DNA of 7,051 nt, taken from the IMG/VR virus record IMGVR_UViG_2663762857_000014. One strand, given 5' to 3'. The notes under the pieces were generated by a model that was given only the letters and a program-made list of their open reading frames with translations, was not told the DNA's origin and did no database searches. Numbering within the stretch: the first letter of the stretch is position 1; every line of letters begins with the position of its first letter. Made by a program: the position numbers and the translations under genes. Below are positions 232 through 7,051 of this stretch, piece after piece. Source of the DNA: a virus (taxonomy: Duplodnaviria > Heunggongvirae > Uroviricota > Caudoviricetes).

Positions 232-3200
232 ATGGGTAAAGGTGGCGGCAAGGCGCACACACCTCGTGAGGCGAAGGATAATCTCAAATCCACGCAGATG
301 ATGAGCGTGATTGATGCGATTGGTGAGGGACCGATAGAAGGTCCGGTGAAGGGACTGCAGAGTATCCTGGTGAACAAAACCCCGCTGACGGACACGGACG
401 GTAATCCCGTGATACACGGTGTGACGGCGGTCTGGCGCGCCGGGGAGCAGGAGCAGACACCACCGGAAGGCTTTGAGTCCTCCGGAGCTGAAACTGTACT
501 GGGCGTGGAAGTGACGAAGGCAAAACCGGTGACGCGCACCATTACGTCCGCGAACATTGACCGCCTGCGGGTTACCTTCGGGGTGCAGTCACTGGTGCAG
601 ACCACGTCAAAGGGTGACCGAAACCCGACATCCGTCCGCCTGCTGATTCAGTTACAGCGTAACGGTAACTGGGTGACAGAAAAGGATGTCACCATTAACG
701 GCAAGACCACCTCGCAGTTTCTGGCGTCGGTGATTCTGGATAATCTGCCTCCCCGTCCTTTTAACATCCGGATGGTCCGGGAGACGGCGGACAGCACCAC
801 GGACCAGTTGCAGAACAGAACACTCTGGTCATCGTACACCGAAATCATCGATGTGAAACAGTGCTACCCGAACACGGCGATTGTGGGGCTGCAGGTGGAT
901 GCGGAGCAGTTCGGTGGTCAGCAGATGACGGTGAACTACCATATCCGCGGTCGCATCATCCAGGTGCCGTCAAACTATGACCCGGAAAAACGCACCTACA
1001 GCGGTATCTGGGACGGCAGTCTGAAACCGGCATACAGCAACAACCCGGCCTGGTGCCTGTGGGACATGCTGACTCACCCGCGCTACGGGATGGGAAAACG
1101 CCTGGGGGCGGCGGATGTGGACAAGTGGGCGCTGTATGCCATCGGGCAGTACTGCGACCAGACGGTCCCGGATGGTTTCGGGGGCACAGAGCCGCGGATG
1201 ACCTTTAATGCGTACCTGGCACAACAGCGTAAGGCGTGGGACGTTCTCAGTGATTTCTGCTCGGCGATGCGCTGTATGCCGGTATGGAACGGCCAGACGC
1301 TGACGTTCGTTCAGGACCGCCAGTCGGATGTGGTGTGGCCGTACACGAACAGCGATGTGGTGGTGGATGATAACGGCGTGGGGTTCCGCTACAGCTTCAG
1401 TGCCCTGAAGGACCGGCACACGGCGGTGGAGGTGAATTACACCGACCCGCAGAACGGCTGGCAGACCTCCACGGAACTGGTGGAAGACCCGGAAGCCATA
1501 CTGCGCTACGGACGCAACCTGCTGAAGATGGATGCGTTCGGCTGCACCAGTCGCGGTCAGGCCCACCGTGCCGGGCTGTGGGTGATAAAGACAGAACTGC
1601 TGGAAACGCAGACGGTGGATTTCACACTCGGGTCACAGGGGCTGCGTCACACACCGGGTGACATTATTGAAATCTGTGATAACGACTATGCCGGGACTAT
1701 GACCGGCGGACGTATCCTGTCCATTGATGCTGCCACCCGCACCCTGACGCTGGACCGTGAGGTTACCCTGCCGGAGACAGGTACATCGGCGGTGAACCTG
1801 ATTAACGGCAGCGGTAAGCCGGTGAGTGTGGACATCACCGCACACCCCGCGCCGGACCGGATACAGGTCAGTACCCTGCCTGATGGTGTGGAGACATACG
1901 GGGTGTGGGGACTCTCCCTGCCGTCACTGCGCCGTCGCCTGTTCCGCTGTGTCTCCATCCGGGAAAACACGGACGGCACCTTTGCCATCACGGCAGTGCA
2001 GCACGTACCGGAAAAAGAAGCCATTGTGGATAACGGAGCCCGCTTTGAGCCGCAGTCAGGCACCCTGAACAGCGTTATCCCACCGGCAGTGCAGCACCTG
2101 ACGGTGGAGGTGAGCGCAGCTGACGGCCAGTATCTGGCGCTGGCGAAATGGGACACGCCGCGGGTGGTGAAGGGCGTGCGCTTCAGTCTGCGCCTGACCA
2201 GTGGAAGCGGTGAGAACAGCCGCCTGCTGACCACCGCCATCACTGCCGATACGGAGCACCGTTTCAGTGGCCTGCCTCTCGGGGAATACACCCTGACGGT
2301 CAGGGCGATTAACAGCTATGGCCAGCAGGGCGAACCCGCCACCACCACGTTCCGGATTAACGCACCGGCAGCGCCTGCCGGTGTTGAACTGACGCCGGGG
2401 TATTTTCAGATAACGGCGGTACCGCGTCTTGCGGTGTATGACCCGACGGTGCAGTTTGAGTTCTGGTTTTCGGAGGCAAAAATTGCAGACGCCGCACAGG
2501 TGGAAACCTCTGCCCGTTATCTGGGGACCGGCAGTCAGTGGAGTGTCTCCGGCCCGCACATTAAGCCCGGAAAGGATTTCTGGTTTTATGTGCGCAGCGT
2601 CAACCTGGTGGGTAAATCTGCTTTTGTGGAAGCCAGTGGACGGGCGAGCAATGATGCTGCGGGCTATCTGGAACTTTTCCGGGAAAAGATAGGAAAAACG
2701 CATCTGGCAGAGGCGCTGTGGGCAGAGATTGACAACAGTCAGCTGAAGGACGAGATGGCGGAAATGCAGACCACCATCACAGAAACCCGCAATGAAATCA
2801 CACAGACGGTCAGTAAAACGCTGGAGGACCAGAGCGCCACCATACAGCAGATACAGCGCGTGCAGAAGGACACAAATGATGACCTTGCTGCACTTTACAT
2901 GCTGAAGGTACAGAAAACAAAAAATGGCATACCCTATGTTGCCGGTATTGGAGCGGGGATTGAGGATACTGATGGCCAGCCCCTGAGCAACATACTGCTG
3001 CTGGCTGACCGTATTGCGATGATTAACCCGGAGGACGGCAACACCACGCCGTTATTTGTGGCGCAGGGGAATCAGTTGTTCATGAACGATGTGTTCCTGA
3101 AGCGGCTGTTTGCGGTGAGTATCACCTCGTCCGGCAATCCCCCTACGTTCTCCCTGACGCCGGAAGGCAGGCTGACGGCCCGTAATGCGGATATCAGCGG

Positions 3201-3762
3201 ACATATCAGTGCGAACTCGGGCACGCTGAATAATGTCGTGATAGCGGAGAACTGTACCATCAAAGGTACTCTGAGAGCGGAAAATATCATTGGCGATGTG
3301 GTGAAAACGCACAATGTCAGTCTTCCTGATCTCAGGGCTGCAGGGGAGCACAGACACGCGACAGAACGAACGGTTACTGTCATTGATGATCAGTCGTTTG
3401 ACCGGAATATTGTTATCCCGCCGGTTTTTTATTCCGGTATTATCTACAAAGGAAGTGATGGTGACGGTGCGACCTCAATCTGTACGCTGACGGTGAGTGT
3501 GAATGATCGGGTGGTGTTCAGCAAAACCTCATCCATCGGTACCAGGCGTACGTCAGGGGGATACCCCGTTCAGGAAGACACCATATATCCCGGGTCATCC
3601 ACTCCGTTCAGCTATTTCATGAGGATGGCGTCAGGGGGAGGTGATGTCAGGATCAAGTTCCGGATTGAGGTCATCTATTATGGAACTGCACCGGGTTTTA
3701 TGACCACAGGGATACAGATCACAACGATGAAGGCGTCAGCTTCAGGATTTGTGGAAAGTTAA
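232..3762 (+). CDS. J: Lambda J-like central tail fibre / host specificity protein (tail tip), 1176 aa
   Basis: 3531-nt ORF with ATG at 232 and Shine-Dalgarno AGGAG at 223-227 (5-nt spacer). The N-terminus [39 protein letters not shown] and internal stretches ([39 protein letters not shown]; [30 protein letters not shown]; [29 protein letters not shown]; [18 protein letters not shown]) match what I recall of phage lambda gpJ (about 1130 aa). Antisense ORFs across it are explained by its length and GC richness. Confidence 0.95.
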
Positions 3763-4082
3763 TCCCGGACGATCGTGATTGCCGGAAGGAGACAAAAACC
3801 GCACAGTATGCGCGGGTGCCTTTGGCTGATGGCCGGAGGGAACACCTGAAAGCCTGATGTGAAAAGGCCCCGAGTCAACTTCAATGTTAACCCGAGGCCC
3901 TGATCCGTCTATCTTAAGCAAGTGGCAGGTTAGCGCCTCTCCGTAATAAGGAGCAAGTGCTGTGTCGCAAAAACCACCGTGATTTGTATCACTGTAGTGC
4001 TCATTATCTGGATCACCCACCGTTCACTGTGTGAATTCCGGTTCCGGATAGCACCTTTTTAATCCTGTAAACCACGATTTTT

Positions 4083-4118
4083 ACCGCAGACCGGGAAACC
4101 GGCACTGCGGTTTTTTTT
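4083..4118 (+). terminator. Rho-independent terminator: interrupted stem (ACCGCAG / CTGCGGT outer, CCGG / CCGG inner, GAAA tetraloop) followed by T8
   Basis: Read directly: accgcag-a-ccgg-GAAA-ccgg-cact-ctgcggt-tttttttt. The outer arms 4083-4089 and 4105-4111 are exact reverse complements, and the T8 run is 4111-4118. On the opposite strand the hairpin is followed by A-rich sequence, so it is unidirectional. It ends 13 nt before the Stf start codon. Confidence 0.6.
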
Positions 4119-4131
4119 ATGGGGAAAATCT

Positions 4132-5583
4132 ATGACAGTCAGAATATCGGGCGTGCTGAAGGACGGCACCGGGAAGCCGGTACCGGGATGCACCATTGAA
4201 CTGAAAGCCCTGCGCACCACGGAGACAGTGATTGTCACCACGGTGGCGCAGGGGCAGCCGGGGGAAACCGGCAGTTACAGTTTTGATGTGGAGCCGGGGT
4301 GGTACCGGGTGACGCTGAACACGGAAGGGTACGCCCCGTCGTATGTGGGTGACATTCTGGTGAAGGCGGATTCTGAGCCGGGAACGCTGAATAAATTTCT
4401 GATGGAACAGGATGAGGCGCAGTATTACCCGAAAGCGCTTGCAGAGCTGGAAGTGGTGGCAGCGGAAATCCTGAAGCGTGCTGAAGCGTCGGCGGCGAGT
4501 GCAGAGGAAGCGAAGAAACGGGCAGAGAATGCCCGGGGACCGGCGGGCGAGAAGGGGGACACAGGTCCACAGGGTGCCACAGGGGCACAGGGACCAGCCG
4601 GGGCAACGGGGGCGGTCGGACCAAAAGGTGAGCCGGGGCCAAAGGGAGAACGGGGAGAAACAGGTCCACAGGGACCGAAGGGCGATAAAGGTGACCCGGG
4701 CGGACCGCCGGGGCCGAAAGGTGACACCGGCCCACGTGGAGAGGCCGGACCACCCGGACCACAGGGTCCGGCAGGGCAAAGCGGCCCTAAAGGGGATAAA
4801 GGTGAACCCGGCGCAACAGGTCCGGCAGGTCCCGCAGGCCCTCGGGGAGAAACCGGCCCTGCAGGTCCTGCGGGTCCCGCAGGCAGTGTCGCCAGTGTTC
4901 CGGATGCCAGCACATTACAGAAAGGTGTTGTACAGCTGAGCAGCGATACCAACAGCGATGATGAAACAAAAGCGGCAACCCCAAAGGCTGTGAAAGCGGT
5001 AATGGCAGAAGTGCAGGCAGCAAAAACGAAGGCAGAAGAGGCAGCAACCCGGGCAGCAGTCCCCGGACCGAAGGGGGACAGGGGGGAACCTGGCGCACCT
5101 GGTGCAGTGGGGCCCGCAGGCCCACGGGGACCGGCTGGTGCAGCTGGTCCCAAAGGTGATGCAGGCCCGGCCGGACCCCGGGGTCAAAAAGGTGATACAG
5201 GACCTGCAGGTCCGCAGGGACCAGCTGGCCCGGCAGGCCCACAGGGGGTTGCCGGAAGGGACGGCAATGTTTCCACCGGGAAATATGCGGTTGGTTCTTA
5301 TGTTTTTGGCGTGTCCTCTGTCTATGCTGACGGCGAAGGCTTATTTTCATCAGGGATATATGAAAACATTCAGGGTAGCTCCATTGATCTGATTTCAATA
5401 CAGACAACACAAACAGGCGCATCAACACCAAATCAAATCTGGTTTTTGAAACTGGAGGAGGACATTCCGGGGGTGTGGCGGGCATTTAAACCCGCCGCAT
5501 ATATTGATCTGATGCCAGAAGGAATGCAAGGAGGAAAGAACTCGATGTTTAACTTTATTACTCTTTTCCAGCGGATAGCGTAA
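4132..5583 (+). CDS. stf: Side tail fibre protein (lambda Stf-like N-terminus) with collagen-like Gly-X-Y shaft, 483 aa
   Basis: ATG at 4132 with GGGGA 7-8 nt upstream. The N-terminus [26 protein letters not shown] closely resembles the lambda Stf N-terminus as I recall it ([26 protein letters not shown]). The motif [28 protein letters not shown] (aa 264-291) matches the conserved tail-fibre motif KGIVQLSSATNS...AATPKAVK. Two long G-X-Y runs occupy aa 136-251 and 311-377. A non-repetitive C-terminal domain of about 105 aa follows. Confidence 0.9.
4537..4884 (+). repeat. Collagen-like Gly-X-Y coding repeat block 1 within stf (about 38 triplets, one register break at [12 protein letters not shown])
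   Basis: Translation [116 protein letters not shown]. The DNA is a GC-rich 9-bp-periodic repeat, which explains the long stop-free antisense and out-of-frame ORFs in the track. Confidence 0.9.
5065..5262 (+). repeat. Collagen-like Gly-X-Y coding repeat block 2 within stf (about 22 triplets)
   Basis: Translation [68 protein letters not shown], immediately after the conserved KGVVQLSS...TPKAVK motif and an Ala/Lys-rich linker. Confidence 0.9.
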
Positions 5584-5594
5584 CGAGGTACGGC

Positions 5595-6188
5595 ATGATA
5601 ATAGCGATCAGTGCGGTTAAGGATCCGGTATATACCAGGCAGGGATGTATCAACTGTCTGGTGAAACTCACCGGAGTTGACGAGGAGGAGACGGACTGGC
5701 TTCCGTTTACGGCGACACCAACGGACGAAGCCCCTCATGGAAAAGAACTCTGGCAGGCACTGAACTCAGGTCAATATGGTCAAATCGCGCCGTATACTCA
5801 ACCGGAAGATGCGGTGGAAAAAGCCAGACAACAGAAAATTAATGAGATCAACGCCTGGCGTAATTCGATGGAAGCGGCGAACTACACGTTTGAGCACAAT
5901 GGGCGTAAATGGGACTACGGGAAGTCAACGCAGACGCGTCTTGAGCCGTCGGTGGCGGCAGCGAAAGCGGGGAAACTGCCGGAGGCGTTTTTCTGGACGG
6001 ATGCGGACAATAATGACGTACCGATGGACGCTGAAACACTGATTGCTCTGAGTGCTGCTGCAGAGCAGGCGATGTTTACCAAAGGTCTGGAAATTCATGT
6101 CAGACAGCGCACGATGAAAAAAGAGATTGAAGCGCTGGATGATGCGGAAGCTATACTGGCGTATAAGGTCGGCATGGCTGACAGGTGA
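5595..6188 (+). CDS. Putative tail fibre assembly protein / chaperone (Tfa-like by position), 197 aa
   Basis: ATG at 5595 with GAGG at 5586-5589 (5-nt spacer), 11 nt after the stf stop. Its size and position directly downstream of the side tail fibre gene match lambda tfa and other tail fibre assembly chaperones. I cannot confirm family membership by eye, so the function rests on synteny. Confidence 0.75.
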   Translation: MIIAISAVKDPVYTRQGCINCLVKLTGVDEEETDWLPFTATPTDEAPHGKELWQALNSGQYGQIAPYTQPEDAVEKARQQKINEINAWRNSMEAANYTFEHNGRKWDYGKSTQTRLEPSVAAAKAGKLPEAFFWTDADNNDVPMDAETLIALSAAAEQAMFTKGLEIHVRQRTMKKEIEALDDAEAILAYKVGMADR

Positions 6189-6213
6189 AAAAAAGAGGGG
6201 CGCTCCAGCCCCT
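6188..6213 (-). terminator. Intrinsic terminator-like hairpin abutting the tfa stop; canonical for leftward (minus-strand) transcription, possibly a weak bidirectional terminator
   Basis: Plus strand reads A7 (6188-6194), g, AGGGGC (6196-6201), 6-nt loop, GCCCCT (6208-6213). On the minus strand this is a 6-bp GC-rich stem followed by cTTTTTTT. On the plus strand the hairpin is followed by ttgctac, a poor U-tract. Confidence 0.5.
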
Positions 6214-6415
6214 TGCTACAAAGCTATGGCTAAATAAAGAATACTCAGGTCGAGGAAATAATCTGGCAATGATAATTAAAGGAGATGCAACGGCCTCCTT
6301 CACCCCTGTCAAAGATAAAAAACTGGGGAGTGCGTGCTCACCGAGAGCATGATACTTGTGGTTGATAGTTATTTTTATCCGGCGACAAAGATATTGAGAT
6401 GAGGGCGCGGATGCA

Positions 6416-6431
6416 ATACAGAATTTTCGTA
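6416..6431. repeat. Copy 1 of an exact 16-bp direct repeat ATACAGAATTTTCGTA, lying inside the 8-bp-arm inverted repeat ATGCAATA / TATTGCAT (6411-6437)
   Basis: Read directly; the second copy is at 6593-6608. Flanks differ immediately outside the 16 bp. Confidence 0.85.
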
Positions 6432-6484
6432 TTGCATGGTAACTGCTGATTCCTGAAACTGAAAGTCGTCATGAAACTGTAAGC

Positions 6485-6512
6485 GAAAAAACGGGGAGAC
6501 GGCACGCTCCCC
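6485..6512 (-). terminator. Intrinsic terminator oriented for minus-strand transcription
   Basis: Plus strand reads A6 (6486-6491), c, GGGGAG (6493-6498), 8-nt loop acggcacg, CTCCCC (6507-6512). The minus-strand transcript would be GGGGAG-loop-CUCCCC-G-UUUUUU. No U-tract follows the hairpin on the plus strand. Confidence 0.5.
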
Positions 6513-6592
6513 AAGGTCATACATGAGATAGTGGTGTTTTTATAGTCGAAAGAATAATTGCATAAAAAGAGTGTAAATTAAACATTCAGGGG

Positions 6593-6608
6593 ATACAGAA
6601 TTTTCGTA
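6593..6608. repeat. Copy 2 of the exact 16-bp direct repeat ATACAGAATTTTCGTA
   Basis: Identical to 6416-6431, 177 bp downstream. A weakly similar attgc..ctgaaa stretch follows both copies. Confidence 0.85.
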
Positions 6609-6644
6609 GGCTGAGGGATTGCTGAAAATAATTTAGTGCGTCCT

Positions 6645-6666
6645 TCAATGGTCATTCAATGGTCAT
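6645..6666. repeat. Perfect tandem duplication of an 11-bp unit (TCAATGGTCAT x2)
   Basis: Read directly: tcaatggtcat at 6645-6655 and again at 6656-6666. An 8-bp-arm inverted repeat ATTGTGCT / AGCACAAT (6670-6699, 14-nt spacer) follows. Confidence 0.85.
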
Positions 6667-6854
6667 CAGATTGTGCTGATGTAAACAGTTAAGCACAATT
6701 TGATTATTTGACTTTCTTCTTTTTGTGACTAACTTCACAATTAAAGATGTAACCGTATACAAATTGTTGATGAATAAAGAGACAGCATAAGTGGCAGGCC
6801 AGTCGTAATGCGGATATCCCTTCGCGAACGTGATATCACCGACGTTATAGTAAG

Positions 6855-6892
6855 GAAATTCCGAAAAACTTCATATTAAAATTCGGAATTTC
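6855..6892. promoter_or_regulatory. Perfect 11-bp inverted repeat GAAATTCCGAA-N16-TTCGGAATTTC directly upstream of an RBS; candidate operator or 5'-UTR hairpin
   Basis: Arms 6855-6865 and 6882-6892 are exact reverse complements. AGGAG at 6896-6900 and ATG at 6908 follow. A perfect 10-bp palindrome GTGATATCAC lies at 6830-6839, and a possible -10 TATAGT at 6846-6851. Confidence 0.4.
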
Positions 6893-6907
6893 TTCAGGAG
6901 TAAGCTC

Positions 6908-6985
6908 ATGAGAGCGGCGAGACATCAGATTTTCTTTATATATCCGATGTTGAGTTGTTTTATTTGTATACAGATAATTTTATAG
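6908..6985 (+). CDS. Hypothetical small ORF, 25 aa, hydrophobic (MRAARHQIFFIYPMLSCFICIQIIL); possible small membrane peptide or leader peptide
   Basis: ATG at 6908 preceded by AGGAG at 6896-6900 (7-nt spacer); TAG stop at 6983-6985. Ends 10 nt before the next ATG. The call rests on the strong RBS alone; the ORF is too short for composition statistics. Confidence 0.2.
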   Translation: MRAARHQIFFIYPMLSCFICIQIIL

Positions 6986-6995
6986 GGTATACCAC

Positions 6996-7051
6996 ATGAG
7001 CAAGAAATTTGCAAATACTATTCTTTCTTCTGCTGTTGCCGGATTGATGTT
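6996..7051 (+). CDS. Possible 5' end of a gene running off the window; the N-terminus MSKKFANTILSSAVAGLM looks like a signal peptide (secreted, fimbrial or outer-membrane protein?)
   Basis: ATG at 6996 followed by two lysines and a hydrophobic stretch, the typical n-region and h-region of a Sec signal peptide. No classic SD directly upstream, so it may be translationally coupled to the small ORF. Only 18 codons are visible. Confidence 0.3.
   Translation, partial: MSKKFANTILSSAVAGLM

Follow-up and report, generated by a model that had tools for sequence, protein, structure and literature searches.

The two exact copies of the 16-mer ATACAGAATTTTCGTA located upstream of the eib gene in the stretch of viral DNA analysed here (the window, 7,051 bp) are best explained, with a probability of roughly 0.6, as paralogous remnants of one old, decaying tandem duplication of a non-coding unit of ~171-177 bp. 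The evidence includes the collinear alignment of the DNA flanking the two copies, which persists when the 16-mers themselves are left out of the comparison. Overall, the 16-mer pair is a previously undescribed example of a commonplace type of feature.

Genomic context of the repeat

The window corresponds to the tail end of a lambda-like prophage and comprises, from left to right, the lambda-like prophage gene for the tip-attachment protein J (232-3762), the gene for a side tail fibre with collagen repeats (4132-5583), a tail-fibre assembly gene with a DUF4376 domain (tfa, 5595-6188, plus strand; Pfam PF14301, E 2e-21, and RefSeq annotation), an intergenic region of 809 bp and the start of eib (6998-7051, plus strand). 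The eib gene begins with the ATG at 6998, is cut by the window end and was identified from the annotation of eibA in AF151091 and of the RefSeq relatives, in which the product is an immunoglobulin-binding, YadA-like trimeric autotransporter. With the J, side tail fibre and tfa genes on the left and eib on the right, the repeat therefore sits in the 809-bp non-coding tfa-eib region. The location in non-coding DNA given in the preliminary description was borne out, since no credible open reading frame was found in the intergenic region on either strand; the longest, of 49-60 aa, overlap a hairpin and are unlike a real protein. Two annotated 49-aa open reading frames of phage PhiR5_2 overlap the hairpins as well.

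The nearest relatives of the locus are RefSeq prophages of E. coli, the induced phages PhiR5 and PhiR12, and P-EibA of strain ECOR-9 (AF151091). Of 5426 complete E. coli genomes, 27 contained the locus, mostly in several places each (70-71 places in all), and it was always flanked by a DUF4376 tfa gene on one side and a YadA-like gene on the other. The window is without lom between the J and side tail fibre genes, unlike P-EibA (AF151091). The corresponding gap of 369 bp (3763-4131) is non-coding and has a terminator-like hairpin, ACCGCAG...CTGCGGTTTTTTTT, at its end (~4085-4120). A second YadA-like gene was observed in the same prophage region of strain 2015C-3121 (L002, 14464-16148), with a Hok/Gef family toxin gene before it and a different upstream region that does not contain the 16-mer.

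Extent and uniqueness of the 16-mer pair

Copy 1 (6416-6431) and copy 2 (6593-6608) match exactly on the plus strand, are 177 bp apart from start to start and sit 567 and 390 bp upstream of the eib ATG, respectively. The bases outside the 16-mer differ, with a before and t after copy 1 and g before and g after copy 2, so that the exact repeat is 16 bp long. No more than these two matches were found in the window when up to three mismatches were allowed. The expected count was 0.01 and two matches were obtained in none of 200 dinucleotide shuffles, results placing the exact direct repeat of the preliminary description beyond chance; an independent repeat finder also recovered the pair. The possibility that the 16-mer is a common genome- or phage-wide repeat did not hold, as no further copy with up to three mismatches was detected in the 61.5-kb genome of PhiR5_2. 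Matches with four mismatches were near chance in that genome, numbering 9 against 4.4 ± 2.7 expected. A scan of 596 Gb of genomes was uninformative, returning scattered single matches in unrelated taxa in roughly the number expected by chance for 16 bases.

Tandem organization of the repeat units

Collinear alignment revealed two repeat units, unit 1 at 6306-6431 and unit 2 at 6477-6608, each ending in its copy of the 16-mer. The elements occur in the same order in both: CTGT, an A-run, a GGGGAG-loop-CTCCCC hairpin (T1 in unit 1), CATGATAC or TCATACATG, GATAGT..TTTTTAT, AAAG.AT.ATTG and the 16-mer, which is found ~75-90 bp to the right of the hairpin. The period is 171 bp when measured between unit starts and 177 bp when measured between the 16-mers. 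Local alignment of unit 1 with unit 2 including the 16-mer gave a score of 65, compared with 28.8 ± 5.0 for shuffles. When the flanks were aligned without the 16-mer the alignment was still collinear, with a score of 52 against 20.9 ± 4.1 for shuffles, a value reached in none of 500. Alignment with unit 2 of haplotype B, the second natural version of this DNA described below, gave scores of 38-42, reached by one of 500 shuffles. An independent repeat finder returned a second direct repeat in the same register, AAGATAAAAAACTGGG and AAGCGAAAAAACGGGG, at the A-run and start of the hairpin with a spacing of 169, and the sequence TGCTGA occurs 12 bp after copy 1 and 11 bp after copy 2. The collinear flanks, taken together with the second repeat and TGCTGA, indicate that the 16-mers are the least decayed portion of a tandem duplication whose units have diverged. 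The units have the same orientation, are adjacent and show collinear homology extending beyond the exact repeat, as is characteristic of tandem duplications. Thus, the duplication scar that had been suggested for the pair stands as an old internal tandem duplication and falls as a scar made on integration.

The conservation of the 16-mer within these units was evaluated by simulation. A perfect island of 16 bp in units that are ~50-65% identical had a P of 0.005-0.14, according to the identity assumed. Such an island is somewhat unexpected under neutral decay and keeps in play selection or gene conversion, either of which may have acted on the 16-mer. Two further observations speak against a simple relic, namely that the spacing of the copies has been held at 176-180 bp in both haplotypes and that the divergence between the haplotypes ends at copy 2.

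Palindrome and leftward hairpins

Copy 1 had been described as lying in the loop of a palindrome with an 11-nt spacer. The palindrome is real and, as read from the sequence, consists of 9-bp arms around copy 1 (ATGCAATAC-N9-GTATTGCAT, 6411-6437) that fold as a stem of 9-10 bp. However, the spacer is N9 rather than N11, and copy 1 covers the inner four and three bases of the arms as well as the loop. Copy 2 has no equivalent palindrome.

The minus-strand terminator reported between the two copies was recovered. This hairpin (T2, 6486-6513, minus strand) was detected by the terminator scan as intrinsic-terminator-like, with 7 pairs of which 5 are G-C and the tail TTTTTTCGCT. The hairpin proper, GGGGAG-ACGGCACG-CTCCCC, occupies 6493-6512 and is followed on the minus strand by a T-run to ~6486; it is degraded in haplotype B. 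The homologous hairpin of unit 1 (T1, 6317-6342, minus strand) was read from the sequence as GGGGAG-N6-CTC(A)CC with a T-run. The T1 stem has one mismatch in the window, where it was missed by the terminator scan. The stem sequence at 6337-6342 is CTCACC in the window and in variants L134, L158, L164 and L165, and CTCCCC in the other relatives, the former being a change that weakens T1 as a leftward terminator. A further terminator-like hairpin identified by the scan (T0, 6189-6213, minus strand) directly follows the tfa stop codon, and an equivalent of T0 is present in a distant eib-like locus. In all, four leftward terminator-like calls were obtained for 6100-7051, all of them on the minus strand, compared with 0.5 ± 0.7 expected. 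The calls correspond to T0, a hairpin at 6277-6302 and two overlapping calls of T2. Since this excess is real, leftward transcription from the AT-rich eib upstream DNA would probably be stopped at the hairpins before antisense entry into the tail-fibre genes.

Natural variants of the region

Nineteen distinct versions of the region were collected from RefSeq genomes, GenBank phages and IMG/VR, with one place per genome. Copy 2 was exact in 18 of the 19, the exception carrying a single A3G change, and its conservation was no more than that of the following 400 bp. Copy 1 was deleted in four of the variants and mutated (A7G) in three, from which it follows that copy 1 and its palindrome are dispensable and decaying. 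The three versions with A7G are long versions that also carry a change from C to A in the right arm of the palindrome (L134, L164 and L165), with no compensating change. The spacing between the copies was 176, 177 or 180 bp.

The DNA preceding copy 2 forms a variable cassette (6454-6592) between conserved flanks. It was found in the 19 variants as haplotype A, that of the window, or haplotype B, the two being ~75-78% identical. The A/B divergence stops at 6592/6593, the base before copy 2, with GGGG in one haplotype and TCAA in the other. The coincidence of this boundary with the first base of copy 2 may reflect an importance of the 16-mer, whether as a site or as an anchor for recombination.

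The short forms of the region (P-EibA, L147, L157 and L158) are missing the segment 6413-6529, a loss which takes out copy 1 and T2. The 117-bp indel has GAT at both junctions, as in microhomology-mediated deletion. Both GATAGT..TTTTTAT motifs are retained in the short forms, indicating that they were derived from a two-unit ancestor by deletion. Inspection of the indel for an origin as a MITE or IS element made such an origin unlikely, as there are no terminal inverted repeats and only the 3-bp GAT microhomology.

DNA upstream of eib

A near-invariant AT-rich block (6593-6997, plus strand; 405 bp, GC ~0.35), of which copy 2 forms the left edge, precedes eib with 95-99% identity in all loci that bear the 16-mer. 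The block is nearly identical although the downstream eib coding sequences differ strongly. For the plus strand of the block, a more stable fold than in shuffles was predicted (z = -3.4), and the block includes a T-rich tract preceded by a long hairpin (6665-6704). An 11-bp tandem duplication (GTCCTTCAATG GTCATTCAATG, 6640-6661) was observed inside this otherwise invariant block. Among the 19 variants the duplication was present or absent independently of haplotype A or B and of long or short form, a distribution which points to a recurrent slippage indel or to recombination, with a length of about one helical turn.

Sampling of eib-like loci via the protein, and not via the repeat, yielded a more distant group, whose members likewise come after a DUF4376 gene. 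The distant loci share with the window only the ~150-165 bp next to the ATG (window ~6832-6997) and are without the 16-mer and without the whole distal 640 bp. Judged from the loci compared, the distal 640-bp segment with the 16-mers is peculiar to one eib subfamily. The shared proximal stretch holds the stem-loop annotated in AF151091 (6855-6892), a promoter-like site (6950-6978) and two strongly conserved footprints. No other footprint is as strongly conserved across the eib-like loci, distant ones included, as the palindrome TTTGTATACAAA with a -10-like GATAAT (6960-6983), which precedes the eib ATG by 15-35 bp and is probably the core promoter or an operator. In published work, a deletion was complemented by eibG carried with 168 bp of its upstream DNA (PMC13534694).

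Static growth, oxygen and temperature all influence Eib expression (PMC4352079). The consensus of the RcsAB box is TaAGaa|tatTCctA, in which T, AG, TC and A are strongly conserved (PMC3950696). The sequence TAAGGAAATTCCGA at 6851-6864 (2356-2369 of L171) agrees with this consensus at 11 of 14 positions, including all six strong positions, with an expectation of 0.18 per window. It is located in the left arm of the eib-proximal stem-loop and is kept as TAAGAnAAATCCTA in the distant eib-like loci, which share little else. This candidate RcsB-type site could fit the static-growth regulation of EibG.

Other candidate sites were rejected. A sigma-54 promoter abutting copy 2 (AGGCTG-N5-TTGCT, 6608-6623) has three mismatches to TGGCAC-N5-TTGCW, and matches of that quality occur in the window at chance level (28 versus 34.8 ± 6.0 expected). 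No convincing match to sites for IHF, Fis, CRP, Fur, NarL, OmpR, Lrp or H-NS, or to 434/P22-type operators, was seen by eye against the consensus sequences. In the literature, no description of the cis-regulatory DNA of eib, no mapped eib transcription start and no transcription or binding data for the region were found.

Alternative explanations for the repeat

It is extremely improbable that the 16-mers serve an integrase or resolvase as crossover sites, or that they arose on integration as attL/attR-type duplicates. The repeat is direct and exact with a length typical of att cores, and the haplotype homology breaks exactly at copy 2, but both copies are interior to packaged phage genomes, lying 177 bp apart between tail genes and far from the integrase, which excludes an att core or a duplication on integration. 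In PhiR5_2 (61,526 bp) the 16-mers are at 37,738 and 37,915 and the integrase gene is at 51-1214, rather than the copies being at the element ends with attP next to int. Recombination between the copies would leave a single-copy product with the junction GATGCA-16mer-GGCTGAGG; neither this 177-bp deletion nor an inversion was found in any of the 19 distinct variants or in the IMG/VR loci, and the sole large indel ends elsewhere, at 6413 and 6529. Furthermore, the flanks of the copies are homologous to each other, which a duplicated target site would not give, and the far end of the eib module has no 16-mer. This evidence led to rejection of the attachment or recombination core proposed in the preliminary description. 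A different explanation, also quite improbable, is that the units are two tandem leftward small-RNA genes ending at T1 and T2 in which the reverse complement of the 16-mer, UACGAAAAUUCUGUAU, is the 5' end or the seed. On the minus strand the 16-mer is ~75-90 nt upstream of a hairpin and T-run in each unit; T2 has the G+C-rich hairpin and T-run of a small-RNA terminator (6513-6492, minus strand) and T1 is similar apart from its stem mismatch, in line with the excess of leftward terminator-like calls. A promoter-like site on the minus strand (6731-6703) could feed the units, unit 1 folds better than shuffles (z = -3.25), and an inverted copy of the 16-mer matching at 12 of 16 positions is present in the eib-proximal stem-loop (6874-6889). 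Against these points, the folding of unit 1 is due to the palindrome, no improvement over shuffles was seen for unit 2 (z = -1.2), and the inverted match is near chance, as found for such matches in the 61.5-kb genome. No family was found in Rfam 15, in which the best matches had E values of 4-6, far below gathering scores, and RNAalifold on the units and haplotypes gave a consensus of -4.8 kcal/mol with a covariation term of -0.12 and thus no conserved structure. No convincing promoter at a conserved position beside the 16-mers was evident on inspection, and none was returned by the promoter scan. Finally, T2 is degraded in haplotype B and T1 is mismatched in the window.

An unlikely regulatory explanation, in line with the regulator binding sites suggested in the preliminary description, is that the two quasi-palindromic 16-mers are paired operator or auxiliary sites ~17 helical turns apart and bound by a dimeric DNA-binding protein. 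The protein could be a LuxR/RcsB-type regulator, the co-activator pair IbrA/IbrB of the prophage, or some other factor of the phage or host, and its binding would alter transcription of eib or of a leftward transcript, possibly by looping. Consistent with such sites, identity at all 16 positions was held while the rest of the units decayed, the 15-bp core read from the sequence (TACAGAA-T-TTTCGTA) is a 5/7 quasi-palindrome, the copy spacing varies little in either haplotype, copy 2 is present in every locus with the near-invariant upstream block, and ibrA/ibrB are on the same phage as eib in PhiR5_2. The loss or mutation of copy 1 in variants argues against a paired site, as does the position of both copies, which lie beyond the terminator-like stem-loop at 6855-6892 and outside both the 168 bp used for eibG expression and the ~150-165 bp conserved in distant eib-like loci. 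Conservation of the 16-mer among the orthologues of the 19 variants is also indistinguishable from that of its flanks. There are two copies only, with none elsewhere at up to three mismatches in the window or in the 61.5-kb phage, in contrast to an operator or iteron array, and a phage-wide operator family is excluded. In our comparison the 16-mer agreed with the RcsAB consensus at 10 of 14 positions and 5 of 6 strong positions, but the resemblance is at chance level, a search allowing up to three mismatches having returned the better box at 6851-6864 and not the 16-mers. Any present-day role of the 16-mer would probably be carried by copy 2 alone, which may be a distal protein-binding site, most plausibly for a dimeric DNA-binding protein because of the quasi-palindrome. 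There is a slim chance that the 16-mer is an uncharacterised regulator site of the eib module, or that the units are a leftward prophage small-RNA pair with a 16-nt seed. Were it a regulator site, IbrA/IbrB would be the most interesting candidate, and the two sites would organise the AT-rich upstream DNA and switch eib on.

The genes ibrA/ibrB ('co-activator of prophage gene expression') were located at 57,883-59,696 of PV340546.1 (L160/L161), an inducible phage that carries eib. In ECOR-9, ibrA/ibrB are described on a separate island. IbrB is ParB-like, and the DNA target of IbrA/IbrB is not known to have been defined.

Proposed origin and significance

In the tandem duplication proposed here, the duplicated unit would lie in the distal part of the tfa-eib intergenic region in Eib-encoding prophages, and the duplication probably arose by replication slippage or unequal crossing-over. 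The copies would then have decayed to ~50-65% identity except for the hairpin stem and the 16-mer. The retention of copy 2 is probably explained by its 16 bp being the start of the near-invariant AT-rich block, which accompanies eib. Copy 1 appears to be a redundant duplicate in the course of being lost, being absent from the P-EibA type and altered in other variants.

In LEE-negative STEC and other E. coli, the prophage-borne Eib proteins act as adhesins and bind immunoglobulins. Copy 2 might conceivably act in regulation and, if the 16-mer were a regulator site, it would provide a handle on the control of Eib expression. The main value of the results is negative, in that the repeat is neither an att site nor a recombination core and forms part of distal DNA that is dispensable. 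Regulatory information shared across the wider eib family is confined to the proximal ~150-165 bp.

Comparison with known systems

P-EibA of ECOR-9 (AF151091) has the same order of J, side tail fibre, tfa (orf-191A), intergenic region and eib, with 92-97% identity to the window on either side of the indel, and it contains copy 2 and the annotated upstream stem-loop. It differs in having lom between J and the tail fibre and in being a short form without window positions 6413-6529, so that it has one 16-mer and no T2. The repeat is unannotated in the record.

In lambdoid phages, a moron is a supernumerary gene that sits within the late operon and is equipped with a promoter and terminator of its own. 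The eib gene with its upstream block resembles morons in forming a unit found beside different sets of tail genes, the neighbours being a lambda-like J in the window and those of an N4-gp56-capsid, 933W-like phage in L002/PhiR5_2, with homology boundaries near 6293 and at the cassette edges. It differs in that the 16-mer units lie in a 640-bp distal non-coding leader, which other eib-like morons do not have, and in that the hairpins of these units point against the moron gene eib. With operators of the RcsAB/LuxR/FixJ type the 16-mer shares the AGAA...TTC core and an approximate dyad symmetry, but it has four mismatches to the RcsAB box, one of them at a strongly conserved position.

A further comparison is with the short direct repeats that arise by tandem duplication or slippage in intergenic DNA, which are alike in orientation, adjacency of the units, collinear decayed flanks and nearby microhomology-bounded indels. 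Nothing essential differs between these and the pair described here, the unusual property of which is that a 16-bp island is still perfect.
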